The notes: generated by a model from the sequence alone, not told the origin. DNA of 54,998 nt from a virus (IMGVR_UViG_3300030376_004186:1-54998), one strand, 5' to 3'. Positions 4,727-39,200 are shown, numbered from the stretch's first letter. A program made the numbers and translations.

Positions 4727-4733
4727 AAAATAC

Positions 4734-6617: not shown

Positions 6618-7016
6618 ATGAAAAAACTATTTTTAACGGCAAGTTTCGTTCTTGCTACAATTTTATGTTCTGCGCAGTTTATGGTAGTAACAACTGTAAA
6701 CATGCCAGAAGATAATGCAGAATGGGAGATGTCGAATATCACTGATAATATGGGTGTTGGTTATATATTGAACAATAATATAACTTTAGGGCTTGTAAAA
6801 AACGGTGAGGAGTACGATATGTGGGGTAGATATTATATCAATGATATTTACGCTTCAGTACAAGCTCCAACTGAAGATATGATGGATAATATGATGTTTG
6901 GTGTTGGTTATTCTTTAAAAGTATGGAATGACTTATATGTAGAACCAAATTACATGATGTCTATGAAAGAAGATTCAGAAGGAGAATTTAAATTAGGAAT
7001 ATCTTATAAATTTTAA
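6618..7016 (+). CDS. Small outer-membrane beta-barrel protein with signal peptide
   Basis: 'MKKLFLTASFVLATILCSA|Q' Sec signal, alternating beta strands (MGVGY, FGVGYSL), C-terminal BAM-type signal 'LGISYKF'. Confidence 0.7.
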   Translation: MKKLFLTASFVLATILCSAQFMVVTTVNMPEDNAEWEMSNITDNMGVGYILNNNITLGLVKNGEEYDMWGRYYINDIYASVQAPTEDMMDNMMFGVGYSLKVWNDLYVEPNYMMSMKEDSEGEFKLGISYKF

Positions 7017-10200: not shown

Positions 10201-11278
10201 ATTCATTATCATCAAGCATTTGATGAGTAGCTTTTCCATTTGTAACATCATAGGTTACAACTTCATCTCCACAACTAATATTAAAACAACTACTTGGAGT
10301 TGTAGCTGTATCTATATCATTTTGCGCTACCTCGTAATAAATATTAGTAGAAGTGTTAGGACCAACACCAGGCACAGAAAATATAATTCCACCTTCAGGA
10401 CCTATATCGCCTATGTTGTAGCAAGGATTAGGAATAATAGTAGGATCACAGACGCTCCCTGCAACTGCTGTTGCTACCGAACTTAAAGATGCTACAGTAC
10501 CAGCGGCTGTATAAGAATAATCTCCACCTGGAAGCGTTCCGTTTGTTCCAGATATAGGTTGTAATAGTGTTCTCCATGCGAGTTCTTGTGCCGCGGTCGG
10601 TGGAGAGGTTCCAAAATGTGTACGAACAGCATATATATCTATATCATTCATCCACATCCATTGTGCTTGTGTCTCTGTAGATTGTGTTACACAACCTACG
10701 AACGCTGGAGGACCCTGGCAAGCGGCATCTGTTAGAAATATTACAACTCTTTTAAATCCTGATTGTCCAGCTCTATTACCTAAACTACAATTTGCTGTAT
10801 CTGTCACTGCTTTATCAAGATGTGTTTCAGCGGTAATAAGACCTGAAAGTAATTGAGTACTACCAGTCCCAAAAACAGCTTGAGCAACGACATCTAATTC
10901 AACGGGATCGTTACTTAACCATTTATTACTAGATGTTTGGTAAAGAAGAGAACTACCAGGATAAGGTCCAGTTGACCATCTACATATACCCATTTGGAGT
11001 TCACCAGCAATCATATGTGGTGTCCAATGTGTAATTAACGAGCTAATAAAATTATTTTGTGCTTGGGATAAAGGGCTATTCTGAGGATATTGTACACTAC
11101 CTGATACATCAACAGCTACAACTATATCAAACAAACAGTTACCTCCTCCACCACCTAAACGTGCCTTACTATTAATAAAAGCAGAACGTTTAGAATTTAA
11201 AACCTCTGGAATTATTGGTTTTGCTTCTAAAGCTTCTGCTTCTATTTTTTTTATTATTTCTTTTTCGTTATCCGCCAT
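7289..11278 (-). CDS. Large multidomain protein: vWA (MIDAS) domain, DUF1566/C-type-lectin-like domain, Cys/Pro-rich regions; probable virion adhesin
   Basis: 'DIVVAVDVSGS...VIFLTDA'; 'YNIGDIGPEGGIIF...DWFLPS...YWTSSQ...VRPIRRF'; C-terminal 'PPPSPPPSPGGGGSGGY'. Confidence 0.7.
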   Translation of the reverse strand: MADNEKEIIKKIEAEALEAKPIIPEVLNSKRSAFINSKARLGGGGGNCLFDIVVAVDVSGSVQYPQNSPLSQAQNNFISSLITHWTPHMIAGELQMGICRWSTGPYPGSSLLYQTSSNKWLSNDPVELDVVAQAVFGTGSTQLLSGLITAETHLDKAVTDTANCSLGNRAGQSGFKRVVIFLTDAACQGPPAFVGCVTQSTETQAQWMWMNDIDIYAVRTHFGTSPPTAAQELAWRTLLQPISGTNGTLPGGDYSYTAAGTVASLSSVATAVAGSVCDPTIIPNPCYNIGDIGPEGGIIFSVPGVGPNTSTNIYYEVAQNDIDTATTPSSCFNISCGDEVVTYDVTNGKATHQMLDDNEFTFYWNDTPNPPYPNVGSNPPPQVGDTLAAITPNLFADSLGNPISTTTILSITPSTHPSGHGAFTVKIVDQLTAALDQSGNNTLPFKFSLTTTVVSPCTSPTPISTTIQPNAISQGSNVININYGPSFSLVIGTVSVPWNQSFNFINYAGWEVSGLDDNGNQLFPPNTTITSTTYPTVNNVGPYFTAQMSLSSPSLGNLTPSAVSSITLTGTTGLTPFGLQGSEWGAYDIPHSGTPPTIQTSLDFGLGLDNTDIIHAFPGNPGTPTGGTHPWLNTHDIAATVCKNHGTTNDWFLPSVQEFKEMFTNVGPGSSAANQITFNPLTQKSEHLYWTSSQHIDNGTGLQDPDKYAYAYDTITNNPKLAYRCHPLSVRPIRRFECEVEPLDPCKDPMVPNTCSCVEYNYRDGFHTGIAGYSGMILTWSSNTSSLTNPLPNLRDKNGNPVSSANTLPASDSSIGGEYIGVMLPTKDVMGNVYSASDIQNNMDSGMTFTLYDVDYTFLGKWRYDTIESISTLPGTPSGSHPYQCQVILMVLKNVTHLEGNIPQLLYDDPNWGESLTHVFFKVEHEMINNSISGCNSFLWGNAQFPNPQGTPGTTPISIRTNEFAHACDSTWAPPTWVNSCITNLLVYQPSTAVQHANLSDCAPTCGAASVNHCFSICGVFAGGSWNTPSNAWFGGEPYGPMAMENNPIGVTSPPFGSNPPGIQDYTAFYDWLTSQFQNPLTIGDTFIFQTSGYNMQISYIDSNGNTITGVPCTIICFKYEGMQNYNIPINVINNNFPLPIVAAGYCCQTSGSSSSLIIPVENDSNSIKLEFEQRLLSKRQKFIELRKPKKTGPFGILGYYPLYDNIDDAIENSPNSSYHIHEFNEQEFYMPNGLEMGVTQFHGDWNNGEEIQIEKTFNYPITTEDNIENDILLSDPIPEIIETPDIPTVISPPIITEPEEEPEEEPETTYTPPPSPPPSPGGGGSGGY

Positions 11279-17563: not shown

Positions 17564-18381
17564 TTTGTTAATTTCTTTTCTACCGTTCCGTCGTTATATA
17601 TAAAGAACAATATTTTATTATTACCTGGTTTTGCTGGTCTACCTAGTATATCGGTTACCATTAATAATTTTTTGTCTAATCTTTTTGGTAGTGGCCCTAC
17701 CCAAGTTCCTTCACAGTGATTATAAGTAGCTTGACATACTGTATCCCAATCGTTCTTACAACAATATTCGTCTACTAATATAACCCACTCGTAACAAGGG
17801 TCGTTGAGCCAGTAAGGATTACCTGGACCAGTGACACAAGCAGCGCTATATAAGCAAGAAGCAGAATCATTGACATTAGCTGTAACATCGTAGTTGTACG
17901 CAGACTGATCCATACATCCTTCAACAATAGCCACGCACGAATTGTTATCAGTATTAGCTGTTGAATCATAGTTAAGAGCAGTACTGTCGGTACAACCATA
18001 AACATAACTAATACAACTAAAATCTTCCGTATTTGCTTCGGGATTGTAGTTGAGCATAGAAGGATCAGTACAACCGTAAACATAAGGAACGCAAGAATTG
18101 TTATCAACATTAGCTAAAGAATTATAATTAAACATAGAACTATCTGTACAACCATATATAGGAAGTATACAACTAAAATCATCTGTATTACAGCTATCAC
18201 AGTAGTTTAACGCTGTAGGATCTGTGCAACCATAAATAAACGGAACGCAAGATTCGTTATCTGTATTTGCTAGTGGATTATAATTAAACATTATAGAATC
18301 AGTACATCCATAAACAAATGCTATACACGACCCGTTATCTGTGTTTGCGTTTGGATTATAATTAAACATTGTTGGATCCAT
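17560..18381 (-). CDS. C-terminal part of a frameshifted Cys-repeat surface protein, ending in a T9SS-like sorting domain
   Basis: GCxDxxxxNYxxxANxDxxSC repeats continue upstream in this frame to about 18444; C-terminus 'KLLMVTDILGR...LFFIYNDGTVEKK'. Confidence 0.7.
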   Translation of the reverse strand: MDPTMFNYNPNANTDNGSCIAFVYGCTDSIMFNYNPLANTDNESCVPFIYGCTDPTALNYCDSCNTDDFSCILPIYGCTDSSMFNYNSLANVDNNSCVPYVYGCTDPSMLNYNPEANTEDFSCISYVYGCTDSTALNYDSTANTDNNSCVAIVEGCMDQSAYNYDVTANVNDSASCLYSAACVTGPGNPYWLNDPCYEWVILVDEYCCKNDWDTVCQATYNHCEGTWVGPLPKRLDKKLLMVTDILGRPAKPGNNKILFFIYNDGTVEKKLTK

Positions 18382-19880
18382 ACATCCATATACATATGGT
18401 AAACAACTTCCGTCATCCGTATTAGCGCTAGGTGAATAATTCCACCTACACAGCTACCATCGTCTGTGTTTGCTAGTGGATTGTAATTTATAGCTATTGA
18501 GCTCATACATCCATAAACAATAGCAACACAAGTATCAGGTGTGTTAGCGTTAGGATTATAGTTGAAAGCTAAAGGTTGCATACACCCTAAAACCACAGGA
18601 ACACAACCACCGTTATCTACGTTAGCTGTGCTATCATAATTAAAAGCTGTACTATTAGTGCAACCAAACACAGCTAGATCATTGCAACTACCATTATCAA
18701 CATCCGCTACATATCCTTGAGTGTAATATTCTAAATAACCAGGGTTGGTACAACCAGGATTATAATAACACGTATCGCTAGTATTTGCTAAAACATCGTA
18801 GTTATAAGCTGTCACGTCCATACATCCCATGACTACCGGTATACATTCGTTACCACAATAAGGCTGTGCTTCATATATATCTAAAGCGCTTTTATAATTT
18901 CTTAATTTATTTTCATTTGGACCAGGCCAAGGATTGTTACCTTCGTATATTATAGTTCCAAAATAATTTTCTACTTTAAAAGAGTTTTGTATCGTTTGTA
19001 TATCTAACTGCTGCGCATTCTGTTGAGGTGTAGGTATTTCAAAGTAATAAAAATATACCTCGTCATTAGAATTAAGAACTAATTCAAATGTGTCAGAATA
19101 AACACCGTTTTGATCTATTCTAAATTGCCATAAAGAATCTCCTTGCTCAACACCTAACCAACAAGCTCCCCAAGAATCTCCTCCATTGTCATATAATATT
19201 AAATCATAAGTACAAGGTGAGGTTAATAACATTTTATCAGCATTAGGATCGTAATTAAACGCCGCTGGATCCGTACAACCATAAGTAGCTAATGTCACAC
19301 AACTTCCATCATCATCTGTAGCTAAAGAATCATATTCTAAATAACTAGGATTAGTACATCCATATATAATAGTATCATTATTACAACTATCAGATACATA
19401 AGGATTTGATGACGCTGTAGATCCAAAGTTTGGTGGATTTAAAAGAAATACAGTGTCTTTACAATCTAAGTTTGTTACTAAGCAACTTCCAACTACAGAT
19501 CCTCCACCAATACCATCTCCATAGGTATCGTTGATAGTAAATATTATTGTGTCTCCAATAGGTACACAAACTTGCGTGTGTATTGTTTGTCCTGTTTGTG
19601 TATAATCATAAGTTCCAGAAGAAACAGAGTATATTATAGTTCCATTAGCTAAGACTTCCCAAGAAGTTTCGCTAGGCCAGTTATCTAATTTTATAGCAAC
19701 ATCTAATAGTGATTGCCCAGGATTACAAACTACATTTTGCACACAACTACCATCATCAACGTTTGCCCATGGGTTGTAATTAGTAGCGTTAGGATCAATA
19801 CAACCAAAATAATAAATACACGAACCATCGTCATGTGTTGCTGTAGAATCATAATTAGACGATACAGTATCTGTACAACC
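17870..19880 (-). repeat. About 17 degenerate copies of a ~26-aa GC(T/M)D...NY...AN.DDGSC repeat
   Basis: Read directly in the translations of both ORFs. Confidence 0.85.
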
Positions 19881-20432
19881 GAATACAACTGTAAATGGGT
19901 CACCTACATATAAATCATCTATACATATATCACTATAGTACAAACTACCTGTTGTAGCTGTAAATACTATTTTAAAAGAATCTATGGCGGTTATAGGGTA
20001 ATAAGCAAGTTTCCATTGGTCTCCTTGATCACCAGATATAACGCCTAGTGTTGTATACCCATTAGCGTCTATATAGCCAGCTTCCAAATCTCCCATAGTT
20101 GACCCATACATATGGTACCAGAAAGATAATACCTTACCTGGTGTTTGCGATATATCAAAAGTAGGTGTGTATGTTATAAACGTTTGACCTGGATAACCTA
20201 CCCCACTAGTAGAAGCTTCTGCATAATAATATATTCCGTTACCTGTTGTGTGGTCTCCTTGTGGACCCGTTAATTGAGAACTTGTTGGCCCTTGCATTAA
20301 CCACCAATCTCTATCATTAGTCGTATCTTGTTCTAACTCTAAAGTGTTTTCAAAATCATAAACCCAAGGAAAAGTATTTATTTGACTAAAACTAAATATT
20401 GGTAATAATAATAATAATAATATATTTTTCAT
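18321..20432 (-). CDS. N-terminal part of a secreted MAM-domain / Cys-repeat protein (frameshifts at about 18444)
   Basis: Signal peptide 'MKNILLLLLLPIFSFS|Q'; MAM motifs 'TGPQGDHTTGNG.YYYAEAS', 'LSFWYHMYG', 'DICIDD'; the last ~40 aa are out of frame. Confidence 0.75.
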   Translation of the reverse strand: MKNILLLLLLPIFSFSQINTFPWVYDFENTLELEQDTTNDRDWWLMQGPTSSQLTGPQGDHTTGNGIYYYAEASTSGVGYPGQTFITYTPTFDISQTPGKVLSFWYHMYGSTMGDLEAGYIDANGYTTLGVISGDQGDQWKLAYYPITAIDSFKIVFTATTGSLYYSDICIDDLYVGDPFTVVFGCTDTVSSNYDSTATHDDGSCIYYFGCIDPNATNYNPWANVDDGSCVQNVVCNPGQSLLDVAIKLDNWPSETSWEVLANGTIIYSVSSGTYDYTQTGQTIHTQVCVPIGDTIIFTINDTYGDGIGGGSVVGSCLVTNLDCKDTVFLLNPPNFGSTASSNPYVSDSCNNDTIIYGCTNPSYLEYDSLATDDDGSCVTLATYGCTDPAAFNYDPNADKMLLTSPCTYDLILYDNGGDSWGACWLGVEQGDSLWQFRIDQNGVYSDTFELVLNSNDEVYFYYFEIPTPQQNAQQLDIQTIQNSFKVENYFGTIIYEGNNPWPGPNENKLRNYKSALDIYEAQPYCGNECIPVVMGCMDVTAYNYDVLANTSDTCYYNPGCTNPGYLEYYTQGYVADVDNGSCNDLAVFGCTNSTAFNYDSTANVDNGGCVPVVLGCMQPLAFNYNPNANTPDTCVAIVYGCMSSIAINYNPLANTDDGSCVGGIIHLALIRMTEVVYHMYMDVWIQQCLIIIQTQTQITGRV

Positions 20433-20433
20433 T

Positions 20434-20760
20434 TTAAAAATCACTCATTAATTGTTCGTCTATTTCTTCTTGTACTTCTTCTCTTGTCGCTACCATTTTA
20501 AAACTTAAATCGGCTTGAAATCTAGCTACCTCTTCGTTGTCTTTAAATATTATAATAGTAGGTATAACCGCTATTTTATGTTTCTTTTGCAACTCTGTGT
20601 TTTTACCTATATCTACATACCCCTTAGTGTTACAGTCTTTTAAATCCATAATCCAATCAACGCCATTGCTTTCGTTCCACTCAGCGTTAAAATGCGTGAC
20701 TGTTATTTGACTAAAAGACAAATTAGTCAACAAAGCAAATAATAATATTAATTTTTTCAT
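20434..20760 (-). CDS. Exported thioredoxin-fold protein lacking CxxC
   Basis: Signal peptide; 'VTHFNAEWNESN' at the WCxxC position; 'KIAVIPTIIIFKDNEEVARF' cis-Pro motif. Confidence 0.7.
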   Translation of the reverse strand: MKKLILLFALLTNLSFSQITVTHFNAEWNESNGVDWIMDLKDCNTKGYVDIGKNTELQKKHKIAVIPTIIIFKDNEEVARFQADLSFKMVATREEVQEEIDEQLMSDF

Positions 20761-21125: not shown

Positions 21126-24100
21126 TTAATCGTGATAGTAACAATACCCACTTTTAGAGTTTGTTTGCATCTTACATCTTTCTTTATTAGACTTTATCTT
21201 TTTACACTGTTTTTTCTTTCCGTCTTTTCTTTTTTCTACTTTAGTGTGTATTGTACAATAACTACTTCCAGGTTCTACTTCTTTTTTACATCTATTACCA
21301 CTTCCACTTATAGCTGAACAAATCCCATCTTTTTTACTTTTCTTTTTGTTTTCTTTTTCTTTTTCTAAATTTTCTTTTTCTTTTTCTTCTTTTTTAATTT
21401 TATCTTTAGTTTTCTTTTTTATTTTTTTCTCTTTTTTAATTTTTTCTCTAACTTCTTCTACTTCTTTGTCTTCAATACCAACATCCCACTTGTTCCAACC
21501 TAAAGATAAAGCTATTCTTTGCCACCATGCGTTTTCAGAATCTGCAGCACCTCGTAAATTTTGTATTTTTCTATGTAGTCTATTTAAAGGTATATTAGTA
21601 ATTGCCTCTGTGCTATTTGTAACAGCATCCCATAATGGATTATCAATATCAAAAATTTCCATTTCTTTCATGACATCTTTATTCCAATCGGTAGTTCGTT
21701 CCGCACTAACTAATTTTCTAATTTTAATACTTATAGGTGGTGATATCTGTAACAACTCAGGCCAAGCTGGAGATTTAAACCACGAATCACTTTTTTGATT
21801 TTCAACAAACTTTATAACAGTGTTTTTTAAAGTAGATACAACAGCTCCATACACTCCAGTTCCTCTTAATATAGAATCTAAAGTACCGTTAATTACTCTA
21901 TCTCTTTTCTTTTCAAAAAATTCTTCGTCTTGCTCGTCATCATCAAACATCATAGCAAATAAAGCTGTTTGTAGTCCGTAAAATACTATACTTTGAACAA
22001 CTCCATAGTAAATTATTCTAGAAACGTTAGCAGTATCACTTTGTGCTTGAGAAGTATAACCTTTTGATATTCTTCTATTTTTTAAATCAAGCGCTGATTT
22101 TTTCATTATTCTAACGTACTGAGAAGTAACGTTTTGAAAAGCTAATATAAATCTACCTAAAACAGAGGCTTGTTGTTGAGATATCATATCAGGTCTAGCT
22201 GATTGCTGTGTAGCTTCTGCTATTTCTTGAAAATCTATAAAAGCTTTAGCTTCAGCTTCTTTCTTACTTAATCCTTGTTTTAAATATGTGTTAATTCTAT
22301 TTCTTAAAAAACTAGCTCCACCAATTGCGATTGCAAAACTATCACCCATTTGGGTAGGTAAAAAACCTATATTCAATAAGTATCTTATAGCGGCTCTAAC
22401 AGGTTCTTTAGATCCAGAAACTTCTCTAGCTATTTCGTTTGCATTAACATCAAATCCAGCTCCAGTTCTTCTTTGTTTTAAATAATCAGAATTAAATATC
22501 ATTGCAAAGTCTGACCAAAATTGTTTTTGATTAGCAAATCTAGCTGCTGCTTTAAATATATTGTTATCTGCAAAATTCATGAAGTTAACAAAAGAAAGTT
22601 GCTGTAGTATTGCAGATCTAGCGTTAAAGAACATTGTTGCTCCAACAGAACCGTTGATCCAGTCTATCCAAGCATTGACAATTTTGTTCTTACCAGTTGG
22701 TCTATTAGTGCCCTTGGTAACGCTATAAAGCATATCTTTCAAGGCACTTTTAAAGTCCGCTCCGTATATAGCTTCTATTTTATTTAAGTTTTTCTCAGAA
22801 AATATAATTTCAGAGTTTTCTATAAATTCTTGGAAAAATTTAGCTCTACCAATTCTACCTGTAGCGTCTATTAAATCGTATTTTATACCACCTGCATCCC
22901 AATTATCACTAGGTTGTACGTAACCTTTTTCGTCTTTAGATATTCTACCTAGTTTATCTGCAAATTCTTGCATTTCAGGATCAGACTTTACAACTTCTAC
23001 TAAGTTTTTTTGATCTGTTTTTGATATACCTGGAATTTTAAGTCCAAATTTATCCCACAAATAAACTCTTATTGCGTCTTCATTAGTAAAATCACCGTCA
23101 GGTATTTTCTTACCCAACTTCTTACGAACATCAGGCATTGATTTTATTAAAGCTCTATAATCATTTGCTATAGCTTGTTTAGCTGCGTTTAATTCTCTAT
23201 AAGCTCTATTTAAAGGTCTTACTAAAGCTTGTTCAAAAAAGTTTCTATGTTGATTACCTTTTTCACCCCTCCCCATAAAGTTATAAAGTAATCCTATAAA
23301 ATCTTCGTGTGATGGTGGTACAAAAAATCTAAACTTACCCTTACCTTTACCACGTCTTCTAGCTTTAGCTTCAGAAAATCTTTTGTTAGATTCAATACCA
23401 GATACATCTTCTAACACATCGTTAAATTCTTTGTCCATAGACTTACTGAACTTAACTCTAGCTTGTTGCACTTTAGACTTAACATCTATCTGATCTAACA
23501 TGTTTTGTACAGCTTGTACGTTTTGTATTGCATCATCAGCAAAGTAAAAGTCATTATAACCTTCTGCTGCCTTATCTAATACCCATAACGCTTTAGCTTC
23601 CGATGTAGAATTACCTAGTCCAGTAATATTTTCTAATGGTATATTTAAACCATTTTCTTTTAAGAACTTTTGTATTGCAACTGCAGACTCAGCTGGTCTA
23701 GCGGTTAGAATAAACATATTTTTAGTACCAAACTTACTTGCTAACTTTTTAGCTTTATTTAACAATGGCGCTGGTTTACCATCTACAACTTTATTAAATT
23801 CAGAGAAGTCAAACTTATAATCTAATCCTAACAAATCTTGGTATGTACTAGCGTACTGCTCTGGTGTTAAAGTTCCTTCAGTTCCATCTGGTCTAGTAAA
23901 TCTAATTAAAGAACTACTTGTAGCAAGTGTATCATCAAAATCTAATATACTAATACCTTTTGTAGGATTGTTAGTAGATCTAGAAAACTTAGCAACAGTA
24001 TCTATTGTGCTAAGATCTTTAATTCTATTTCTTAAATTATCAGTTAAAGTAAATATACCTTTAGCCTCTTCTTTAATTAAAATATCTAATATATTATCAT

Positions 24101-27100
24101 ACCTATTTATACCACCTTTACTTTTATAGCCTCTTTCAGTAATTTGATTGTCAATATTTTTTGGTAAAACATGAACAAAAGATTTGTTAAACATATTTTC
24201 AACATTTTCTTTAGTCGTGTTTTTATTAATATAATCTATTAAAATATCTACAGTATCGTTAATAGTTATTTCATGTTCTAAGGTTAACTCACTTGATTTT
24301 AAAGTAGAATCTTCATTTAAAGTTATACCAAGTTTAGCTATTTTTCTAATAGCACCTCGTTGGTCATAAGCTATTAGCTGTATCATTGATATTTTCTCAC
24401 CTTTAGTTAAATTAGAATCTAATATTTCAAATACAAAATCTCTAGCTTCTTGAGCTTGTTCGTTTACTTTTTTAACTAAATCAACGTTTTTACGAGCATT
24501 ATTTTTTATATTTTCAATGTTCTCGTATAATTCAACATCTTTAAAAGTTTTACCATCATAACTAAATTGCATTTTAAAACCTTTATCAACTTCTTTTAAT
24601 TTAAAATTGCCATTAAAATTACCTTCTAACAAAGTGTTTAACACGTTGTTTAACAAAAGTTCATTAGTAGTTATATTGAAGACACCAGCTGATCTAGTCG
24701 ATCTAAAAACATTTTTTAGAAATTTATTTATTTCATCAATTTGTTTGTTTTTACCGCTTATTTTAGAGATAGTGTTATTAAGATAATTAACAAACCCTTC
24801 GTGAGCCATCTCTCTTATTTCTGGCATATTAGTGTCTTTAACATCTTTTATTATAGTGTCAATATCTAATATATCTGTAAAATTTATTTCAGCTAACTTA
24901 GTATCTCTTAATTCTACTTCTAAATCAAAAATATATTCTAGTTCTTGTAATATAGTTTTAGTATACTCGTCTTTTTCTATTTTAATTTTTTTATCTAAAA
25001 CTGTAAGAAATTTTCTTTTAGCTTGTCTATCTGTTAAAACATTAGAAAGTTTAATAGTATTTTTTAAAACATTGTACTCTTTTGTAGATCTACTAAATTT
25101 AACATCAACATCTCTACCTATAGCAGCGGATAATTGTTGTATATCGTCTATCGCTAAAGTCTGTCCTTTTATTTCTGCAATATCTTTTCTTAATTCGTTA
25201 ACTTTAGGATCTTTAGCAACTTCCATTGTAGCATCAAAAGATAAAGAACCTGCCATAGCTTTTGCTAAAGCATCTTTTCTAGTTCCTTTTAATCCAGATC
25301 TAACGCCTGTTTTAGGGTTTATAGCTGGTTGATTAAAAAAAGCTACAAATTGTTTTTCTGTAGGTATTATTTTTCTATAAAGTCTTACTGCGTTTCCCTT
25401 ATCTATAACATTTATAGCTTCTTTTGGTAATAAATTTTGTTCAACAGCTGACTCTACATCTGCTTTAGATGTTAGTTCTCTATCAAAAACCGTAAATACT
25501 CTTTCGTTTTCTGGAACCATTTTTTCTAATTGCACTAAATCAGCAGTAAAAATAGCATCTACTATAAATGTTCTATATTTTTTTAAATTATTAATATATT
25601 CTTTAGTACCTAAAAAGTTTTTAATATCTTTAAATAAATAAACAGAAGCTTCGTCTCTTAATTTTCTTTGTATATTTCTTACTGAAGTACCTACTTCATA
25701 AGCCCTTAATAAAGATTTTTTAGCGGTACTTAAAACTTTATTGTATAAATCACTACCTGTTTTTATACCTAGTTGTTGTCTAAATTTAGAATACTGCTTT
25801 TCTTTTGATTTGATTTTTTCTTGTCTTGCCTTTGAAGCTTCGGATATAGACATATCTTCTTGTTCCAAAGCTTCTTGCGCAGATTCATCTGTATCTTCTA
25901 TATCAAAAGTTGTTTCACCTTCTTTAGTCTTTTTAGCAGCGTCTATTCTTTTTGTTTTACCTTCTCTTTTTGCTTCTATTGCCAACTTTTTAGCGGCAAC
26001 TAACTTACCAAACCCAATATTAGCCATTAAAAACTCCCCAACAGTTATTGGTTCACCAGAATCTGTTTTTCTTTTAGCGGCTGGATCGTAATTAATTAAC
26101 CTATCATAAACAGCTTCAATAGTTTCTTGAAACTTTTCTTTACTTAATCCTAAACTTTTAACATAATTATTTATTGCCCCATCTTCTTTTACAATAGAAT
26201 TAAATACATTGTCAAACGGCGAAGGTAAAATTTTAGATTTTCCATCAGCGCCCACTACTTTTTCTTTTGCTCTAAACTCAGCTTGTGTTTTTGCTCCCTT
26301 CTCCATTTTGTTGACAGCGGCTACGGCCTTTGATATAGACATTTTAGCTTCAGCGGTAGTAACTTCTTCACTTGTAACCTCACCTTCAGCAACATCAACT
26401 GCTCTTTGACTAAGTTTACCAGCTTGTATACTTTTTTGGTAATCTTTCATAAAGTTGTAAGTAGCTATACCACTTTCAAATTCTTTATTATATCCAAAAG
26501 CTCTAAATACATTGTGTAGGGTGTTTCTAAGTTGTGTAAAAATACCTTCGTTAAAAGTTAAATCACCTTTTGTTAAACCATCGGAATATATAGTTAACCA
26601 CTCGTCAGTAGTATTTATATCTAACCCCTCACCGTCTTTACCTTCGTTTCTACGATTTATTTCAGCTTCTATATAATTTCTAGATTTTTTAGATATAGTA
26701 TTTTTAAAATCGTTTATAAATTTCTTTTTAACATCTGTATCAAGGTTACTTAAGTGCTTAGTTAATATACCATGTAGTATTTCATGTCCACCAACGTTAA
26801 TTTGACCTGTTTTACCTGCAATGTCTTTATTTATAACTATAGAATCTCCAATAATAAAACCATCAGCACCTTTAACGTTTTTAGCCTTACCTCCTTTTTC
26901 AGCTATTATTTTATCATAAGCTTCTTGGGCCTTATTATCGTTATCTACAACAATAACATCTTTACCTATACGTTTACCTTCGGTTTCTGCAAAAGCAATT
27001 GATTCAGATATATTAAATTGTTCTAAACTTTTTTTAGTTTGTTTTTGAAGTTCAACAACATCTACACCTTCATATTTACTAATAATATCATCAATATTTT

Positions 27101-28388
27101 TTTGATTTTCTTCTAGCTTAACATCGTTGTTAACTTTTCTAAAAACTCCTTTTTTATTATTGTTTTGTTCTAATATTAATCTTTCTAATTCTAAATCAAT
27201 TAATTTTTCCTTGTCTTTAGAGTCTGTAATATTTTTATCTATTTCTTTACCTATATTAGCTCTTCTTTGTTTGTTTTTTACTTGAGCTTCTAAGTTTTTA
27301 TTACCTACAATATTTATTCGTATGTTAGATATTTCTTCGTCCGTTAAATTTTTATCATTTAAAAAATCTACAACATCTTTTTCTGTTGCAAACGCATTGT
27401 TTATACTATATTCCGTAGGTGTTGCGGCAGCTGAAATTATATCAGCAACATTAACCACTCCTTTAGCTTCTAAAATACCTTCTAAAAATATTTCTTCACC
27501 TTTTATTTCTTGGCCAGCTGCTATTTGACCACCAAGTTCTCCAAGTGAACCACCGGTCATTTCTATAGGAGCTACAGCTAGTGGTATCCCTACTACTTTT
27601 TGTATTTTAGTTTTTGGTGTTTTCAATAATTTACCAGCTACACCTCTAGATAAACCAGCTGTAATACCTTCTACAGCAGCAATAGTTAAACCTCTAGCTA
27701 ATGATCTATTTTTAATTCTTGTTACAGTTTCCTCGTTGTTTAATATTTCTCGAATATTTTCTTTATTAAACTCTTTACCACCTAACTCGTCTTTTAAAAG
27801 CTCTGTTAGTGTTAATCCAGTTTCCATAGCACCAGTTAGAGATGAAAAACCAGCAATTAAAGCACCTCCACCAGTAGTAGCTGTACCAAGAGGACCAGCA
27901 GAAAAACCAGTAGCACCAAGCGCAGCTCCAGTTCCCATAGAAGCTAATGTAACAGCAGCTACATCATCTGAGTCAAAAAACGAACCTACCATTGTAGAAA
28001 GAGAAGTAACAATAGCTTGCGGCGCATAACCTGGATTTTCGGCTAAAGCTTTCATACCTCCAAAAAATCCTCCTCCATTTTCTTCAACAGCTTTTTGATA
28101 TAAAAACTGCTCATTAGTTGGGCCGTATTTATTCATGTTATTAACAGCGTTGATATAACGTTGTAATTCCTCGTCACTTGTAGAAGAACCTTTCTTATAA
28201 ATATCAAAAGCCTCATCAACAGACCCAGCAGTACTCCAACCTATATTCCAAGAAGTTAGTAAGTCTTCCCAAAAACCACCATCAATAGGTTCAGGTTGTT
28301 TGACAGCTTTTGTTGCACTACCTAAAGGTATTCCAAAAGCGTCTACTTCAGAAGTAGATAATGATGCAAATATTTTGTTATCACTCAT
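21126..28388 (-). CDS. Giant (2420 aa) putative ejected polyprotein: hydrophobic N-region, zincin HExxH, HAD phosphatase, two C-terminal C3H Zn fingers
   Basis: 'GGHEILHG'; 'ILDFDDTL...ILTAR...K...FADD'; two C-x9-C-x10-C-x2-H units; follows other internal-protein genes. Confidence 0.75.
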   Translation of the reverse strand: MSDNKIFASLSTSEVDAFGIPLGSATKAVKQPEPIDGGFWEDLLTSWNIGWSTAGSVDEAFDIYKKGSSTSDEELQRYINAVNNMNKYGPTNEQFLYQKAVEENGGGFFGGMKALAENPGYAPQAIVTSLSTMVGSFFDSDDVAAVTLASMGTGAALGATGFSAGPLGTATTGGGALIAGFSSLTGAMETGLTLTELLKDELGGKEFNKENIREILNNEETVTRIKNRSLARGLTIAAVEGITAGLSRGVAGKLLKTPKTKIQKVVGIPLAVAPIEMTGGSLGELGGQIAAGQEIKGEEIFLEGILEAKGVVNVADIISAAATPTEYSINNAFATEKDVVDFLNDKNLTDEEISNIRINIVGNKNLEAQVKNKQRRANIGKEIDKNITDSKDKEKLIDLELERLILEQNNNKKGVFRKVNNDVKLEENQKNIDDIISKYEGVDVVELQKQTKKSLEQFNISESIAFAETEGKRIGKDVIVVDNDNKAQEAYDKIIAEKGGKAKNVKGADGFIIGDSIVINKDIAGKTGQINVGGHEILHGILTKHLSNLDTDVKKKFINDFKNTISKKSRNYIEAEINRRNEGKDGEGLDINTTDEWLTIYSDGLTKGDLTFNEGIFTQLRNTLHNVFRAFGYNKEFESGIATYNFMKDYQKSIQAGKLSQRAVDVAEGEVTSEEVTTAEAKMSISKAVAAVNKMEKGAKTQAEFRAKEKVVGADGKSKILPSPFDNVFNSIVKEDGAINNYVKSLGLSKEKFQETIEAVYDRLINYDPAAKRKTDSGEPITVGEFLMANIGFGKLVAAKKLAIEAKREGKTKRIDAAKKTKEGETTFDIEDTDESAQEALEQEDMSISEASKARQEKIKSKEKQYSKFRQQLGIKTGSDLYNKVLSTAKKSLLRAYEVGTSVRNIQRKLRDEASVYLFKDIKNFLGTKEYINNLKKYRTFIVDAIFTADLVQLEKMVPENERVFTVFDRELTSKADVESAVEQNLLPKEAINVIDKGNAVRLYRKIIPTEKQFVAFFNQPAINPKTGVRSGLKGTRKDALAKAMAGSLSFDATMEVAKDPKVNELRKDIAEIKGQTLAIDDIQQLSAAIGRDVDVKFSRSTKEYNVLKNTIKLSNVLTDRQAKRKFLTVLDKKIKIEKDEYTKTILQELEYIFDLEVELRDTKLAEINFTDILDIDTIIKDVKDTNMPEIREMAHEGFVNYLNNTISKISGKNKQIDEINKFLKNVFRSTRSAGVFNITTNELLLNNVLNTLLEGNFNGNFKLKEVDKGFKMQFSYDGKTFKDVELYENIENIKNNARKNVDLVKKVNEQAQEARDFVFEILDSNLTKGEKISMIQLIAYDQRGAIRKIAKLGITLNEDSTLKSSELTLEHEITINDTVDILIDYINKNTTKENVENMFNKSFVHVLPKNIDNQITERGYKSKGGINRYDNILDILIKEEAKGIFTLTDNLRNRIKDLSTIDTVAKFSRSTNNPTKGISILDFDDTLATSSSLIRFTRPDGTEGTLTPEQYASTYQDLLGLDYKFDFSEFNKVVDGKPAPLLNKAKKLASKFGTKNMFILTARPAESAVAIQKFLKENGLNIPLENITGLGNSTSEAKALWVLDKAAEGYNDFYFADDAIQNVQAVQNMLDQIDVKSKVQQARVKFSKSMDKEFNDVLEDVSGIESNKRFSEAKARRRGKGKGKFRFFVPPSHEDFIGLLYNFMGRGEKGNQHRNFFEQALVRPLNRAYRELNAAKQAIANDYRALIKSMPDVRKKLGKKIPDGDFTNEDAIRVYLWDKFGLKIPGISKTDQKNLVEVVKSDPEMQEFADKLGRISKDEKGYVQPSDNWDAGGIKYDLIDATGRIGRAKFFQEFIENSEIIFSEKNLNKIEAIYGADFKSALKDMLYSVTKGTNRPTGKNKIVNAWIDWINGSVGATMFFNARSAILQQLSFVNFMNFADNNIFKAAARFANQKQFWSDFAMIFNSDYLKQRRTGAGFDVNANEIAREVSGSKEPVRAAIRYLLNIGFLPTQMGDSFAIAIGGASFLRNRINTYLKQGLSKKEAEAKAFIDFQEIAEATQQSARPDMISQQQASVLGRFILAFQNVTSQYVRIMKKSALDLKNRRISKGYTSQAQSDTANVSRIIYYGVVQSIVFYGLQTALFAMMFDDDEQDEEFFEKKRDRVINGTLDSILRGTGVYGAVVSTLKNTVIKFVENQKSDSWFKSPAWPELLQISPPISIKIRKLVSAERTTDWNKDVMKEMEIFDIDNPLWDAVTNSTEAITNIPLNRLHRKIQNLRGAADSENAWWQRIALSLGWNKWDVGIEDKEVEEVREKIKKEKKIKKKTKDKIKKEEKEKENLEKEKENKKKSKKDGICSAISGSGNRCKKEVEPGSSYCTIHTKVEKRKDGKKKQCKKIKSNKERCKMQTNSKSGYCYYHD

Positions 28389-31983: not shown

Positions 31984-33279
31984 TTAAGAATTAGTTGCTA
32001 ATATAAAAGCTCTATCAATATCGTAAAATACATCTACACTATCTGTTGGGAAAACAGATACAGTCATAGTTCCCTCTATCAAAGCGTAAGCTGATGATCC
32101 ATAAACACGTAAAACCGTGTTATCTTTAATTGTTTGTGCTCCAGTAACAGTTATAGGTGTTCCAGAAGCGTGAACAGCTGTTATTAAATTTGCGTTACTA
32201 GAAGTTGTTACATTACTTCCAATTATTTTACTTCCAACAGAAACACCACTAATACCATCTATATCTATAGAAGTACCACTAACGTCACCGTTGACCGTAA
32301 TTGTTCCAAAGTTATTTGTTTTACTATTAGTAGATGTTACAGGAGTAACGGTTAAATCAAAACTAAACAACCCTCCAGTAGATTTAGATATTAAATCAGA
32401 TCCATAAGCTCTAAATACAACAGCCTTATCATCTCCCCAGCTAGGTGTTGTAGAAAGTGTAATTGTTTTTGCGCTTCTATCTATAGCTGTAATAGTAGGA
32501 TATGTTAAAACTCCCAGTGTTCCACTTTGTTCTTCATCTGAACTATCTGCTATGTCTACTAAACTCATACCAATAACTAAACCGTCTACACTATCTAAAA
32601 TCATACTATTAGAGTTTGTTCCAGTACCATCTGTTTGTCCTGTCACTTTAGTGAAAAAATCTCTATCTTTAGGTTGTAACGAATCTGCTAAACTATTTCT
32701 GTTATTAGTACTAGAAGGTAATGTATATTTATATCCAAGAAAAGGAGCGTCACTACTATCTGATATTGTTTTACTTATAGACATAACTCTTTTTGATGTA
32801 GACCCAGCAGAATCATCTACTTTCATCGCAACGCTATCGTTATCAGAAAAACTACCTATTCCTACGAACTGAGCATCAGCTTGATCTGAAGAAGTAGAAA
32901 ATCTAACTCCCACTTGTTTATGTTGTATTACTGACGTTGAAGTAAAATAACTATTAGAACTTATAGAATTAGATATTTCAGTTTCAAACTCAGGATATGC
33001 AAATAATAAAAAATCATAAGTTTTACCACCAGAATCAGCTGGAAGTACAACTGTTTTATTGAACGTACCTAAAATAGATATATTATTTAATACGTTTTCA
33101 GACGTAAAAGTATTAGTAAATGTATCTGTTGTAAAATTGTAAAATTTATTTGGAGATGAACTATCTTTTATCTGTAAACTAAACACAGCTCCATCGTCAC
33201 CTGCTACGTTTACCGTTACATTATTAATCTTAGAAGATATTTCTGTTTTATCAGTACTAAATCCTGTTATTGTTTTCAT
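31984..33279 (-). CDS. Beta-rich tail/structural protein
   Basis: 431 aa, S/T/D-rich, two similar modules (LDSVDGLVIGM / IDGISGVSVGS). Confidence 0.55.
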   Translation of the reverse strand: MKTITGFSTDKTEISSKINNVTVNVAGDDGAVFSLQIKDSSSPNKFYNFTTDTFTNTFTSENVLNNISILGTFNKTVVLPADSGGKTYDFLLFAYPEFETEISNSISSNSYFTSTSVIQHKQVGVRFSTSSDQADAQFVGIGSFSDNDSVAMKVDDSAGSTSKRVMSISKTISDSSDAPFLGYKYTLPSSTNNRNSLADSLQPKDRDFFTKVTGQTDGTGTNSNSMILDSVDGLVIGMSLVDIADSSDEEQSGTLGVLTYPTITAIDRSAKTITLSTTPSWGDDKAVVFRAYGSDLISKSTGGLFSFDLTVTPVTSTNSKTNNFGTITVNGDVSGTSIDIDGISGVSVGSKIIGSNVTTSSNANLITAVHASGTPITVTGAQTIKDNTVLRVYGSSAYALIEGTMTVSVFPTDSVDVFYDIDRAFILATNS

Positions 33280-36200
33280 TATATAGATGTTATATCGTTA
33301 GCAATTCCTATCCCCTGAAAATTAAAAGCCTGCGTATCTACCACGCTATCGTCACCACTAATGTAATTAAACCATTTTCCTTCTTTTTCAATAAAACTTG
33401 AAACAGTTCCACCTTGTTGATCTGTTTCAATACTATTACAAATCCAACTTTCGTCTCCATCGTAATTTAAAGTATTGTAGTTTTTAATAACAAGAGGAGA
33501 TTCATTTAATAAAAACGTTATATTAGAATTAGTAGAAGTACCATAAAAACTATTTCTCGTTGAATTATCATGGTGTTTATAACATTGTCCCGCGTTAAAA
33601 GTATAATAATCTCCAGACATACTAACACCTGACTCTTGTATAAATGACTTGAAACTAGTCCAACCTTTCACGTCTTCACTATAAGTAACCGTTTGACTAT
33701 GACCACTTGTATTTCCTTGTATACCGTAAGTAGTGTTGTCTCCTCTATCAAATGTTAAATTATAATCGTTTTTATAGGTATCATAACTACCAATAATATT
33801 TATGTGACTATCATCTTTAAATTCTTTTTTAAACCAATCACTCATACCAGCATCTGATATTGGTGTTAATCCATCCATAGATAATCTTAAAACAGCTCCT
33901 CTTTGTCTATCTGTAAAATAAGCTCTATAAGAATCTTTAGCAAATGATTCTGGGTTTTGTGATATACCATAATCACCAACAAAAGGATTTGCATCACCTA
34001 ATACAGCGTCAGAAGCTACTAACTGCGAGTTACCATCCGCGTTGTACAAGGCGTTTTTATTAGCTGTTATACTAACTACTCTATCTTCACAAAATGCAAC
34101 TAAACTTATTCTTCTTGAAAATAGTTTTTGTATACTACCGTATGTAGGGTTTAAATCTTTTGTAATCTTTTCAGCCATTATAAACTGGTTGAGATTATTG
34201 ATCCCACCAGTATCGTTATATATACCAGAATATATCAACCCACTTTTTCTGTTTTCTTCTTTATACTGCTCTTGTAAGGTTGATGAAGCTCTAGCTCCGT
34301 TACTTATAAATGGTTGGTTAAAGTCATCTCTAATTCTATTAGATTCAACTCCGTTACCAAAAGTAAAACAATTAAAATATGGCAATCCTATATTTTTGTT
34401 TAACGTTCTATTTAACGCTATTTTTGTTATTTTACCAGACACTATAGTTTCTATAGTGTGAATTCCAACTTCAACATAACTTAGATCTTTTCTGTAGAAT
34501 CTTAATGTAGAATCTTCAAACAACTGTGTTTGATCACTCGTGCTACTTTGTGAAGCAGATGTGGTTCCTCCAGAACCATCGTCTATATCATCAGTCAACG
34601 CAGTTAGTCCTGGATCTAATTCTACTACTCTTCCATCCCAACTTTTAACTACACAATCACCAAAGTTAGGTGTAGCAGTGTGTGAACCTGATTTGTCACA
34701 TCTAACAGCTGTTCCAACAGGTGCTATCATATGTCCTTTTCTATTGTCTGGATTAGCAACTTTAGTTGCGTCTGTAGATTCTAAATCTAACTTTAATGGT
34801 ATTGCGTCTGATGCTTCGTAGTAAATATCTAAATCTGTATTTTCTTTAGGTTCTGTTTCCCAAACAGCAGGGTCATCACTTAAAACGGTAGAATTTTCAG
34901 AAACATAATTTTTTATAAATTTTAAAAAACCTGGTGTTTGCGGTAAGTTACTAGCAGCACTCGCACTTAAATCATCGTTATTAGTTAACGAATAAAGAAT
35001 CCTTTGTATACCAGTGTTAGTTCCATCGTAACATTCGGTATTAGGATTTTTATCTAATTCTATTATAAAACAAACTCTTCTATTGTGAGGCGCTGCAAAA
35101 TCTCTAATAGCATCTAGATAATCGTTGAAATGAGCAGGTGTTCTATCGTTGGACCACTCGTGCCATTTTGCCCAAACAGAATTTCCTCGTGGAGCTATAG
35201 GATCGTCAAGTACATTTTCCTTGTTAGCACTGTCCCAAACGTAAGTTCTATTCCAAGCGGTGTGATTGTATAAATGTTTTTTAGTAACCTTTAATATTGT
35301 AAATATTGTTTCGTTTACATCGTATTCAAATTGAAACTTACTACCTATTACTAAGTTTTGAATAATCGCTTCGTTTTCAGGGTGATTATGCGTTATATCC
35401 CATTGTTTTTCGTAAATATTTGGATCTGGAGTATAATTTGGGTGTTGTATTGGATAGCTTGAAGTACTTCCACCACCACTAGTGCTATTTGAATCTGGAC
35501 CAGAGTGTCTATAATCATTTTTTTGTTGGTTATAATTATGTATATGCTGAAAGTCTATCCACTTTAAAGATTGTGTGCCGAGCCAATTAGAAGCAGAAGT
35601 ACTCTTCTGATGGAAATCAGTACTTGGAGCTAAATGTTCTCCAACGTGAGAAAAAGATAAGTGCATGTAGAATTCGCCACCTCCACTTCCTGTTTCTCCG
35701 TAAACGTCAGGATCTCCATGTTGACTATAAGTAGTTGCGCCACTTCTTACTTGTCCGTTAGCAAATTGCTTTAACCACATAAAATTTCCGGCGGCAGTAG
35801 AACAATATTGACCGTTAGTTTCGATAACACCCGTCATACCGTTTACACTATTATCAGAAGATTTTCGTAGCATACCAGAAACAGAAGCGTCATAAATATT
35901 AGCTCCTGAATCATGGTTTGTCCAACCACTAGTGTCAGACAATATAGTTGGTTGTTGTGCCATTGAAAGAGCAGAGTCTATAAACCATCCTCCACTTGTT
36001 TCTCCTTTATTAAAATGTAGGATTTCATCTCTCCATTCTTCGGGTCGATCAGAAAAATAATTTGTCCCGGCGTTTTCTGGGTTTAAACTATTATTAGCTT
36101 GTCTTGTGTTCGGGTTAGCGTACAATCCTTGAAACAATCCACTTCCAATCACGTTACTAGAGCTACTTCCATCGCTAGGCGCGATTCTATCACTAACATA

Positions 36201-39200
36201 GAACAGTTCTGTTCTAGCGGCTAAACTAGTTGATATTATTGTTCCAATTTGAGATTCTAAATATTCATCTGTAACTATATCGGATAATATTTTTACAAAA
36301 AATCTTCCTTGGAACTCTTCCCATTCTTGTTGTTCTTCTATCCAAATAGTTGTTTTTAAACTCGTATCTAAAACACCAACGCTAGTTTCTACCCAACCAT
36401 CTGCTTGTACAATAGCTTTATCTAAAATTATAGTATAAAAATCTGTAGTTGAATCTGTTGTAGTTAGCGATATTATTTTATATCTTTGAGAAATTATTTC
36501 ATCACCATTAGCGTTATTTACTTTAAACGTAAGAGATTGTTTAGTGCCTTTATCGTATTCGTGTTGTATATCCGCGAGGCCCTCATTTAAAAAAGAATCT
36601 TTACTTATTATAAGACTATTTGCTCCTGCAAAAGGCTGCGCTCCATTAAGATATAAACCATTAGATCCTGTTAACGTACCATCTCCATCTAGTTGTCCTA
36701 TTTCTTGATATTTTTTCTTTATAAATTCAGGTGCTTCGTTCTTTATATCAATTACCTTGTATTTATTTTCAAACGGAACTTGGGTAGCAGGGTTACTTAA
36801 TGTTCCTAATCCTTTTTTAAGGATTATATAATCATCTTCCTGTATTTTATTTCTATCACTCGAAGGAAAAGATATCCATAAATTACCATCTTCTTCTGCT
36901 CTATATACTCTATCCATTACTAAGTTATAGTATTCTGAAGCAGTTTCTTTTATAAAAACTTTAAAATAATACGGTTCGTAATTAATACTAGAATTATTAG
37001 TATTGTCCATTATAGGTATATCTGTAGGAGAATGTCTCACGTACAACATGTTAGATCTACTAGCCATTCCATTAAAATCCGCAGACGTATCGCTGTCATA
37101 AGGGATTGTTACAACATTATTGCTTCCACCAGAAAAAACTGGTGTTTCTCTACCGTATTTATCTCCAAAAACTATACCTCCTTGGTATGTTCTTTGAGAT
37201 TTTACTGATTGCCTTCCATCACTATAATCTATGTCGGTTCCAGGAAAATTTCTTTTCTGGTATCTGGTAACAATATACGGAGTGTAATCTTCTATCTTTA
37301 AATTTTGAACATAATTACCATAGACAAGTCTGTTACCTGTAACCTCTTGTGCTTTAGCTGTTTTTGGAACGTTATCCCAAGGTCTTAATAATTGATTTGA
37401 AGGTAGGGCAGCGTGGATATTATCAGCAGTTATTCTATAGTAGCCGGTATTAGAAGCTACTAATTCATCACCAGAAGGAAGTGTTATAGTATCTATTTTT
37501 GTTGGTGGAGATGTGCTGTGATCTAGATCTACTAATTCCCAAGGTCCAATACTACCTAGATTACTTGGTTTAATAGTTTCTATAGAGTATACAGTAGTTG
37601 AATTATCAGGTTTATAAAGTAAATTAACTTCTACTACGTCTAAGGGTATATCATGTGTAATAAATTCTTTTAGTATAATACTTTTAACCCTGGTTTCCAT
37701 CGCTGAATTATAAGGTTCTTTAGTAGGATGTATACTAAATTCTCCTGCAGTAAATCCTACTTGTGTAAATGGACTAAAAGCAGAGTATTCTCCATCTTCA
37801 TATTTGTATCTATAAGCAAACCTTGGGAAGGATTTAGTGAATAATAAATCATTTAAATCTTCTATAACAAAATCATATTGTATAGAATCCAAAGAAGTTG
37901 CAGAATCTATAGATAATACAGTGCCTGTAAATGTTTGCGTATACTCTGGGTCATCAGTATTTGATCCTCCTGGAGCTCCAAAACCCGCGGTCATAGTAAC
38001 AGTAGGACTAGTTGTAACTAAAAATCTTATTTGCGCGTTATTTGGTAAAACTCCTTGCGCACTAGGATCGCTTAACAATAAAATATCACCATCATTAACA
38101 CCGTAAGGAATACCATCGTATATAGTTATTGAATTGTTTGTTGCAAAAGATTGACTAACAGTGTCACCAGTAATTAACGGGTAAGGATCTGGTGTTAAAT
38201 TTGGATATCCACCACTACTTTCCCAAATTTTACGTCTATTCATTGGTGCACTTATACTTACGCTTGTGTCTCCAACTGCAACACCGTTTATTGAAAAAGA
38301 ATCTAAAGAACCTGAATTTGCACTTGTATCATCTATTGTGTTAAAATCTATTCTTGGAGCTTGTGTAGGTTTTTTCTTTATAACAGTGATATGCTCTTCT
38401 TTTAAAGGCTGAGCTGTAGCGAACCTTACGTATTCACCAACTGCAGCAGTTGCAGATCCACGATATACCGTACGGTTTAAAGTTACTGTTCCAGCCGCGT
38501 AATTAACACTATCAACAGTCACGGTAGTACTTGGAGAGGAGATATTACCGGCGTGTTCAAACTCTATTAATTCGTCACCTTCTTTAATATTTGGGTTTGA
38601 TGCGGTTCCAAGATTACTTAAATACAATACATCTGTACCACTACTAGCGCCGGTACTAGTGTCTGTATAAGCTTGTGTCCAAAGAGTGTTTACTATTTTA
38701 GAAAAATCATTGTTGTTAACAACTAATTTAGTGTGTGTACTAAAATCACTTGTACCAGCTTTACATCTTTCTATATTTATTTTTTTAGGTTCGTTTTCCC
38801 CATCTGTCCAAAATAATAATCCATCTATTATATTAATTCCAGTTATAATATTACCTGTAGAAAATTTTAAAACAGTATTAGTTAAATCAACTACAACTAA
38901 ATTAGCTGAACCAGTTTTCGTATACTCCACTACCGCACTATTAACATCGTCCGTAATAAAAGAATATAAAACATCGTTTTTTTCGTCAGCTATAGAACCA
39001 ACGCACTCCCAAGCAGAGCTGTTATCAGGTAACGTTAGACTCCCTATCTCAGTGTTACCTAATATATTTTGCACAGTTCCAACTCCTGCTTCGTCAGAAG
39101 TTGAAACCTGTATATTTACCGCGTCTCTATACTGTCCATTTGGAACTATTCTTTCATCAAGGTCTTTATTCATTTTACCTTGAACAAAAGTATTTTTAAT

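Follow-up and report, generated by a model that had tools for sequence, protein, structure and literature searches.

A recurrent peptide motif at module borders of a giant polyvalent-type phage protein varies with the protein's own zincin and may mark processing sites

Polyvalent proteins are giant phage proteins built from unrelated modules, HExxH zincin domains among them, and they show extensive mosaicism (Iyer, Burroughs, Anand, de Souza, and Aravind 2017, PMC5512222). In the available portion of that paper, the zincins are linked to lethal factor and are proposed to process the proteins that carry them, with domains being released by autoproteolysis. The same portion gives no cleavage motif, the words "cleavage site" occurring only in its reference list, and mentions neither "Cellulophaga" nor "Flavobacter"; the supplementary lists, which may hold the family described here, lie outside that portion. 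We analyzed P0001, a protein of 2,420 amino acids (aa) encoded by a giant open reading frame (ORF) at 21126..28388 on the minus strand of the virus contig IMGVR_UViG_3300030376_004186. The window, that is, the whole stretch of DNA that was analyzed, is the complete 54,998-base contig and comes from a marine flavobacterial phage of low G+C. P0001 resembles the polyvalent proteins in being a giant phage protein of unrelated modules (a zincin and a haloacid dehalogenase [HAD] fold, joined in some relatives by a kinase), and judging from its length, its place in a block of structural genes, its zincin motif, and its modelled HAD fold, it fits that class. What sets it apart from the published description is a defined candidate site, the covariation of this site with the zincin, and membership in a very large marine family.

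Several other systems share parts of this layout. MARTX toxins, in the available accounts of them, are likewise huge polypeptides with exchangeable effectors and a built-in protease that cuts between the effectors after delivery. They differ in using a cysteine protease domain activated by inositol hexakisphosphate, in having RTX repeats, and in being secreted toxins with a eukaryotic target; Pfam searches of P0001 (E ≤ 1) found neither a MARTX cysteine protease domain nor RTX repeats, and we regard the likeness as one of analogy, not kinship. The internal proteins (IPs) and Alt of phage T4 and the inner-body proteins of phiKZ and SPN3US are packaged in the head, ejected, and cut at a short consensus motif (described in part in PMC10052503). 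In the phage studied here, by contrast, a single protein has the motif, and that protein brings its own zincin. T4- and phiKZ-type phages have a prohead serine protease dedicated to this task, which cleaves after Glu in many head proteins. No prohead protease was recognized in Pfam and PHROG scans of the window ORFs, several of which lacked any match, and rather than being shared by several head proteins, the strict motif occurred only in the giant ORF. The C-terminal region of the N4 virion RNA polymerase, itself a giant ejected virion protein, also contains an HExxH subdomain resembling zincins, with a large and mainly helical domain of unknown fold after it (PMC13434306, in the part available). 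In P0001, however, no RNA polymerase module was recognized, and no sequence or fold match to the N4 protein was found.

A search of P0001 for K[FM]SxS returned four sites, starting at residues 682, 1097, 1467, and 1646, here named S1 to S4. They read AKMSISK (S1, core residues 682 to 686, 26331..26345), VKFSRST (S2, 1097 to 1101, 25086..25100), AKFSRST (S3, 1467 to 1471, 23976..23990), and VKFSKSM (S4, 1646 to 1650, 23439..23453), all on the minus strand. An earlier note on this DNA had pointed to the same four sites, at coordinates that agree to within flanking residues, and to a HEILH zincin motif, which is present at residues 535 to 539. In 3,000 shuffles of P0001, the motif occurred 0.068 times on average and never reached the four copies observed. 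Across 273 family proteins, we counted 286 copies, compared with a mean of 16.2 in shuffled sequences (maximum, 19 in 5 shuffles). The reversed motif, S.S[FM]K, was depleted in the same 273 proteins (3 copies, with 18.2 expected). A chance origin of the motif is excluded. In a six-frame scan of the window, only the four sites were hits in a long ORF's own frame, and a relaxed form of the motif was found in no nongiant ORF of 13 related loci.

Among 121 proteins (P0001 and 120 close relatives), there were 197 strict motifs, with 7.3 expected from composition; 30 proteins had none, 29 had one, 35 had two, 13 had three, 11 had four, and 3 had five. Site-wise alignment refined the conserved core to phi-x-F-S-[KR]-[ST], phi being a hydrophobic residue. 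S4 is the best-conserved site, 240 of 269 aligned relatives having F-S there, and 82 of 88 have it at S2; at S3, S[KR][ST] is present in 102 of 175. The four-site set of the earlier note stands for S2, S3, and S4, while S1 (AKMSISK) is weak and doubtful, being strict in only 9 of 162 relatives. The note had also observed that the codons differ between sites, which is borne out: Ser is encoded by AGT or TCT, Lys by AAA or AAG, and Phe by TTT or TTC within P0001, codons also vary among the sites of loci L003 and L009, and the core is kept across relatives. The occurrence of the same core at nonhomologous positions with different codons indicates that selection acts on the peptide. The variation in codons also led us to reject frameshift or RNA signals at the sites. 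We also set aside some look-alikes. VRFSTS in a 431-aa ORF corresponds to VRFSTA and ITFSLA in two homologues and is probably a structural strand, and a second MSIS (DMSISEAS, 25875-25889, minus strand), near residue 838 in a disordered acidic linker, is not conserved in the family consensus. The muzzle-like protein of the window also contains a look-alike of the motif.

The chief new evidence comes from relatives in which the motif has changed. Distant relatives carry another motif at several sites rather than simply losing it. The protein of locus L009 has K[LS]SENP at the equivalents of S3 and S4 and at a third place, and that of locus L012 has LKSEQL at the S4 equivalent and one other place. 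P0168 carries FSEG three times, S3 and S4 included, and among the 273 proteins, further cases are FSET four times in P0161, FSLD twice in P0257, KLSKSAK twice in P0098, and ESKA twice in P0141. The S4 4-mer departs from FS[KR][ST] in 142 proteins (57 types), and further copies of each protein's own 4-mer add up to 30 in this set; when the 4-mers were permuted among those proteins, the mean was 9.25 and the maximum was 22, with none of 2,000 permutations reaching 30.

The variant present also goes with the zincin type. Some proteins with another zincin type have a C-terminal domain 81 to 91% identical to that of a protein with the P0001-type zincin, and in these S4 is altered: the pairs (other versus P0001 type) are NFSEG and KFSKT at 91% identity of the C-terminal domain, KFSEN and KFSKS at 87%, KFSES and KFSKS at 85%, and NFSET and KFSKS at 81%. 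Over the whole set, and with kinship ignored in each test, a canonical xFS[KR][ST] S4 was present in 105 of 201 P0001-type proteins but in 3 of 38 others (P = 1.8 × 10−7 by Fisher's test), Gly at +4 in 5 of 201 and 10 of 38 (P = 5.7 × 10−6), and Asp or Glu at +3 in 4 of 201 and 8 of 38 (P = 6.3 × 10−5). In these alignments, it is the type of zincin, and not the closely related C-terminal domain next to the site, that the motif variant tracks. The earlier note had taken the motif for a recognition site, an idea that gains from the finding that the variants change together within proteins and track the zincin.

We then compared the sites with the borders of the protein's units, using AlphaFold models of residues 440 to 1110 (mean predicted local distance difference test [pLDDT] score, 73.7) and 1440 to 2330 (mean pLDDT, 78.1). 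All four sites lie in lower-confidence stretches outside the folded cores, so the note's own refuting possibility, motifs buried within folded domains, was not what we saw. The well-modelled zincin is followed by a stretch with a pLDDT below 50, at the end of which is S1, and S2 is within a low-confidence stretch. S3 is at the end of a low-to-middling-confidence helix, 7 residues before the first HAD strand, and at S4, where the final strand of the HAD fold gives way to the C-terminal domain and its first helix, the pLDDT dips to 58. The structural alignment of the HAD fold covers model residues 36 to 206 (protein residues 1475 to 1645), starting 3 residues after S3 and stopping at S4; the tight bracketing of this domain described in the note is thus accurate, with no more than 4 residues between the fold and either site. 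Punctuation of domain borders, as the note put it, holds in part: the sites are at unit borders, but the motif is missing from the border between the N-terminal domain and the zincin, from the disordered linker at residues 792 to 853, and from a border near residue 2320.

Between S2 and S3 lies a segment of 369 aa (the K/N/I-rich segment of about 370 aa in the note) in which Asn, Ile, and Lys make up 32.5% of residues, compared with 20 to 28% in other segments. This variable cassette (residues 1098 to 1466; 23991..25097, minus strand) had no Pfam match and is missing from roughly half of the close relatives: 98 to 120 of the 120 relatives cover the sequence flanking residues 1100 to 1467, and 43 to 66 cover the inside. 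Internal BLAST alignments break at the same places, 67 of 235 alignment ends falling at residues 1101 to 1120 and 142 of 422 alignment starts at residues 1441 to 1480. The drop in coverage and the pile-ups of breakpoints identify S2 and S3 as the junctions of an exchangeable cassette, as the note had supposed. Proteins with a short middle region (n = 177) have a mean of 1.6 to 1.7 sites, versus 4.1 to 4.5 in the 28 proteins with a long one. In P0166, whose HAD module contains an inserted kinase, there is no internal site, and S3 (in tandem) and S4 are kept. Tandem sites are spaced 15 residues apart in 13 cases and 27 residues apart in 19.

The zincin domain (residues 440 to 669; 26382..27071, minus strand; HEILH at 26772-26786) is modelled with a pLDDT of 80 to 92. 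H535, E536, H539, and E596 are invariant in all 112 aligned relatives, and Glu596 is likely the third zinc ligand; by alignment, the predicted catalytic residues are intact across relatives. HExxH is present in 118 of the 121 proteins, and the 3 without it are shorter (1,671 to 2,162 aa) and apparently truncated at the N terminus. A hidden Markov model of the P0001-type zincin finds 207 of the 273 proteins, the remainder, two of which have HDxxH, being fragments or proteins with other zincin types. Structural comparison placed the model nearest to the catalytic domain of anthrax lethal factor (1yqy_A; Z = 5.7, 166 residues aligned, root mean square deviation [rmsd] of 5.4), followed by PPEP-2 (6fpc_A; Z = 5.0) and PPEP-3 (9g0j_A; Z = 4.6), all below the Z of 8 advised by the tool. 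We take lethal factor- and PPEP-like zincins to be MEROPS family M34. Weak as they are, these matches agree with the relationship to lethal factor drawn for the zincins of polyvalent proteins (Iyer et al. 2017, available part of PMC5512222).

The module between S3 and S4 (residues 1475 to 1645; 23454..23966, minus strand) has the fold of an HAD phosphatase without a cap domain. Its best fold match is the 3′-phosphatase domain of T4 Pnkp (5uj0_B; Z = 13.2, rmsd of 2.3, 123 of 142 residues, identity of ∼15%), with Pnkp1 (4xrp; Z = 12.4) and T4 PNK (1ltq; Z = 12.3) close behind, and Foldseek assigned the module to the HAD phosphatases with a probability of 0.99. DFDDT corresponds to motif I, and its D, D, and T residues are invariant in the family alignment. 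Curated sequence models gave little, with Pfam PF12710 scoring an E value of 0.091 and 13.6 bits against a cutoff of 27 and no NCBIfam match. The HAD modules of P0166 and P0169 are interrupted after motif I by a P-loop kinase (AAA_33; E values of 1e-10 and 6e-9, respectively), unlike the arrangement in T4 Pnkp, whose kinase is fused N-terminally; the inserted kinase is of the AAA_33/Zeta-toxin type and has a weak match to bacterial Pnkp (E = 0.003). The likeness of the modelled fold to T4 Pnkp, together with the kinase insertion in relatives, suggests that this phage protein carries a polynucleotide end-healing enzyme, in which case the HAD substrate may be a polynucleotide 3′-phosphate.

That the motif changes in concert with a built-in zinc protease suggests that the protein cuts itself into pieces. 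In the reading that we favor, to which we give about an even chance, the border motifs are recognition sites for processing, most likely by P0001's own lethal factor-like zincin, and the cuts release the modules. P0001 is probably a virion or ejection protein because its gene lies within the structural block, downstream of a muzzle-like gene and upstream of fiber-like genes. The giant polyvalent protein would travel in the virion, leave it together with the DNA, and bear a short linear recognition signal (core, phi-x-F-S-[KR]-[ST]) at the borders of its functional units, where its own zincin would cut. From the intact protein of about 270 kDa, the products would be the N-terminal domain with the zincin (∼75 kDa, only if S1 is cut), module A (∼45 kDa), the exchangeable cassette (∼41 kDa), the Pnkp-like HAD 3′-phosphatase (∼20 kDa), and the conserved C-terminal domain with its zinc-ribbon tail (∼85 kDa). 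The scissile bond may lie next to the invariant Phe. Conservation is strongest at this hydrophobic residue, which is preceded at a distance of two positions by another one, a pattern that suits enzymes relying chiefly on the S1′ pocket for specificity, as many zincins do. A role of this kind for the zincins of polyvalent proteins has been proposed before (Iyer et al. 2017, available part of PMC5512222).

A number of observations weigh against this reading. No cleavage product has been seen by any means, and the N4 virion RNA polymerase, which has a zincin domain, is packaged unprocessed (PMC5512222, available part). S1, the site nearest the zincin, is poorly conserved (S[KR][ST] in 44 of 162 relatives, in addition to the rarity of its strict form), and the strict motif is absent from 30 of the 121 proteins, although F-S at S4 is mostly kept. 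The models put S3 and S4 at the ends of helices, beside very short spacers rather than within long flexible linkers. Natural splitting of the gene at the sites was seen in none of 12 loci, and the short relatives look like fragments from contig ends. The match to the lethal factor and PPEP folds is below the safe level (Z of 5 to 5.7), and the statistics that associate zincin and motif are uncorrected for phylogeny. Moreover, in the full-length relatives P0141 and P0157 the zincin sequence is HHDxLH, the catalytic Glu being replaced by Asp, yet both proteins have recurring border motifs (ESKA twice and FSET twice).

Some of these points also suit a serious and strong rival, in which the motif is a docking or joint element: a strand-like border peptide would bind a coevolving partner (the interior of the portal or capsid, a packaging or ejection chaperone, or a zincin-like groove that does not cut), and the protein would stay whole, as beads on a string. 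Concerted change and a position at borders suit any coevolving binder, S3 and S4 abut folded elements with only short spacers, the relatives with HDxxH keep their motifs, and in N4 the zincin region of the unprocessed polymerase is needed for encapsidation (PMC5512222, available part). The invariance of the His, Glu, His, and Glu residues in 112 of 112 relatives nevertheless argues for catalysis beyond binding. The motif does not occur in other virion proteins, and no partner has been identified. We consider a docking role possible, if on balance unlikely. The same HDxxH relatives, P0141 and P0157, and the features of the sites, which suit any endopeptidase, would also accommodate cleavage by another enzyme, be it an unrecognized head maturation protease, a host protease acting after ejection, or the product of a separate gene. 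The earlier note had named a second zincin at 52272-52694. This 140-aa protein (minus strand) does have an HExxH motif (HEMRH), and its Atlas clusters are virus only, with weak leads to SprT-like and M78 zincins, but it had no Pfam, PHROG, or PDB match to bear out an identity as a peptidase. No protease family was found in the other 35 ORFs scanned or in the PHROG scans. Other head proteins should also be cut if a general head protease were at work, but the other coding frames of the window lack the motif, and the nongiant ORFs of the related loci lack even its relaxed form. A host protease would not explain lineage-private codes, and the variant goes with the type of zincin present in the same polypeptide. 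Cleavage by another protease is the lesser of these rivals and appears improbable.

The motif might also have no peptide function and be a by-product of cassette exchange at the DNA level, as microhomology or as scars of junctions. The sites do coincide with mosaic breakpoints, and the common tandem sites, 15 or 27 residues apart, could mark lost cassettes. Against this, codons differ between the sites in the window, L003, and L009, the sites are no more alike in nucleotides than their peptides would lead one to expect, a degenerate similarity of 12 to 18 bases is a poor recombination substrate, and S4 is conserved between two universal modules that are not exchanged. We find an origin as DNA scars very unlikely.

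A bolder form of the processing reading, which we offer tentatively and consider doubtful, is that P0001 and its relatives are the phage counterpart of MARTX-type effector polyproteins with private codes. Coevolving zincins and sites (FSKS, FSEG, FSET, and KLSENP) would provide every lineage of this very large family with its own pair of protease and code, which would free exchangeable anti-host modules, for instance a Pnkp-like enzyme for RNA-end repair, from a single ejected polypeptide, and cassettes could be traded only between proteins with matching codes.

The remaining parts of P0001 are likewise encoded on the minus strand. The N-terminal region (residues 1 to 439; 27072..28388) is rich in Gly, Ala, Thr, and Ser and matches phrog_32588, a family of unknown function (E = 5.4e-54, residues 38 to 439). 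Module A (residues 683 to 1096; 25101..26342) is conserved and helical, contains the disordered acidic linker at residues 792 to 853, and gave no known fold. The C-terminal helical domain (residues 1647 to 2320; 21429..23450) has one hydrophobic helix (residues 2129 to 2148), resembles no recognized fold, and is the universal core of the family, being present in 119 to 120 of the 120 close relatives. Pfam, NCBIfam, and PDB sequence searches with module A, the variable cassette, and the C-terminal domain (modules plus 16 + 19 relatives) returned nothing, and Foldseek against the PDB gave no match at an E value of ≤0.001 for either model, a search in which some parts of these multidomain models are barely probed. 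For the LPD domains of polyvalent proteins, there is here only an unconfirmed lead: an Atlas feature search of the C-terminal region pointed to LPD39 (28% of cluster members) and LPD38 (88%), and Pfam scans of P0001 and its relatives detected no LPD family. The Lys-rich tail (residues 2321 to 2420; 21129..21428) has two Cys-rich DUF5763-like motifs, probably zinc ribbons; PF19067 is below the cutoff in P0001 and above it in the relatives P0012, P0042, and P0045. Of 7,998 candidates scored, 2,386 are relatives of P0001 at an E value of ≤1e-3, and residues 1440 to 2330 match 2,994 cluster representatives at 50% identity.

The portal protein of the phage is 41 to 55% identical to the portals of Flavobacterium, Cellulophaga, Maribacter, and Tenacibaculum podoviruses. 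The minus-strand gene order is terminase, portal, capsid-type structural proteins, a 1,976-aa muzzle-like protein, several unknowns, the giant ORF, and fiber-like proteins. The 1,976-aa virion protein (33279-39209, minus strand) contains the crassvirus muzzle C-terminal domain PF25729 (E = 4.5e-9, above the cutoff) and has a phrog_14478 match; through this predicted domain, the marine podovirus is connected to the crassviruses in the architecture of its tail. A 707-aa protein (18321-20444, minus strand) with a MAM domain (E = 1.7e-18) and a 1,329-aa protein (7289-11278, minus strand) with a weak match to an Lcl C-terminal domain are likely fiber or receptor-binding proteins. A plus-strand block at 319-7016 encodes primase-helicase, thymidylate synthase, MazG, and ribonucleotide reductase. 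The chaperonin GroEL (53793-54998, minus strand) is cut by the contig end and is accompanied by Cpn10 (53549-53806, minus strand) and a second protein matching a GroES-like PHROG (50178-50768, minus strand); GroEL/Cpn10-type genes are also present in the relatives MW202828.1 and Panino. No tRNA genes were found in the window, and there are many in the relatives Panino and Gundel.

A tblastn search of 50,697 phage records with P0001, its C-terminal region, or its N-terminal region gave no match, and we therefore found no cultured relative with a P0001-type protein, despite the phrog_32588 match at the N terminus. In MW202828.1, the syntenic giant gene (L002, 741-12320) encodes 3,859 aa with two HExxH motifs and is annotated as a "reticulocyte binding/rhoptry protein"; its product has only a weak N-terminal match to P0001 (26% over ∼170 residues) and no recurring motif. 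The syntenic giant gene of Maribacter phage Panino (L016:35444-40933) encodes 1,829 aa, is annotated as "tRNA methyltransferase," and lacks HExxH; by eye, the protein has no clear recurring motif. This position in the gene order seems to be occupied by giant proteins that evolve rapidly.

No description of this motif or family was found in a literature search conducted mostly outside subscription journals. Processing of polyvalent proteins by their zincins has been proposed since 2017, with no cleavage site given in the available part of PMC5512222, and the motif described here offers a testable peptide code, in a family of at least 2,994 clusters at 50% identity in public metagenomes. Natural swaps of zincin type together with site variant predict which protease should cut which site. 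If the processing reading is true, the exchange of cassettes would be explained, a Pnkp-like end-healing phosphatase would enter the cell with the DNA, and the borders of modules, and hence the effectors, would become readable from sequence in many uncharacterized marine phage genes.

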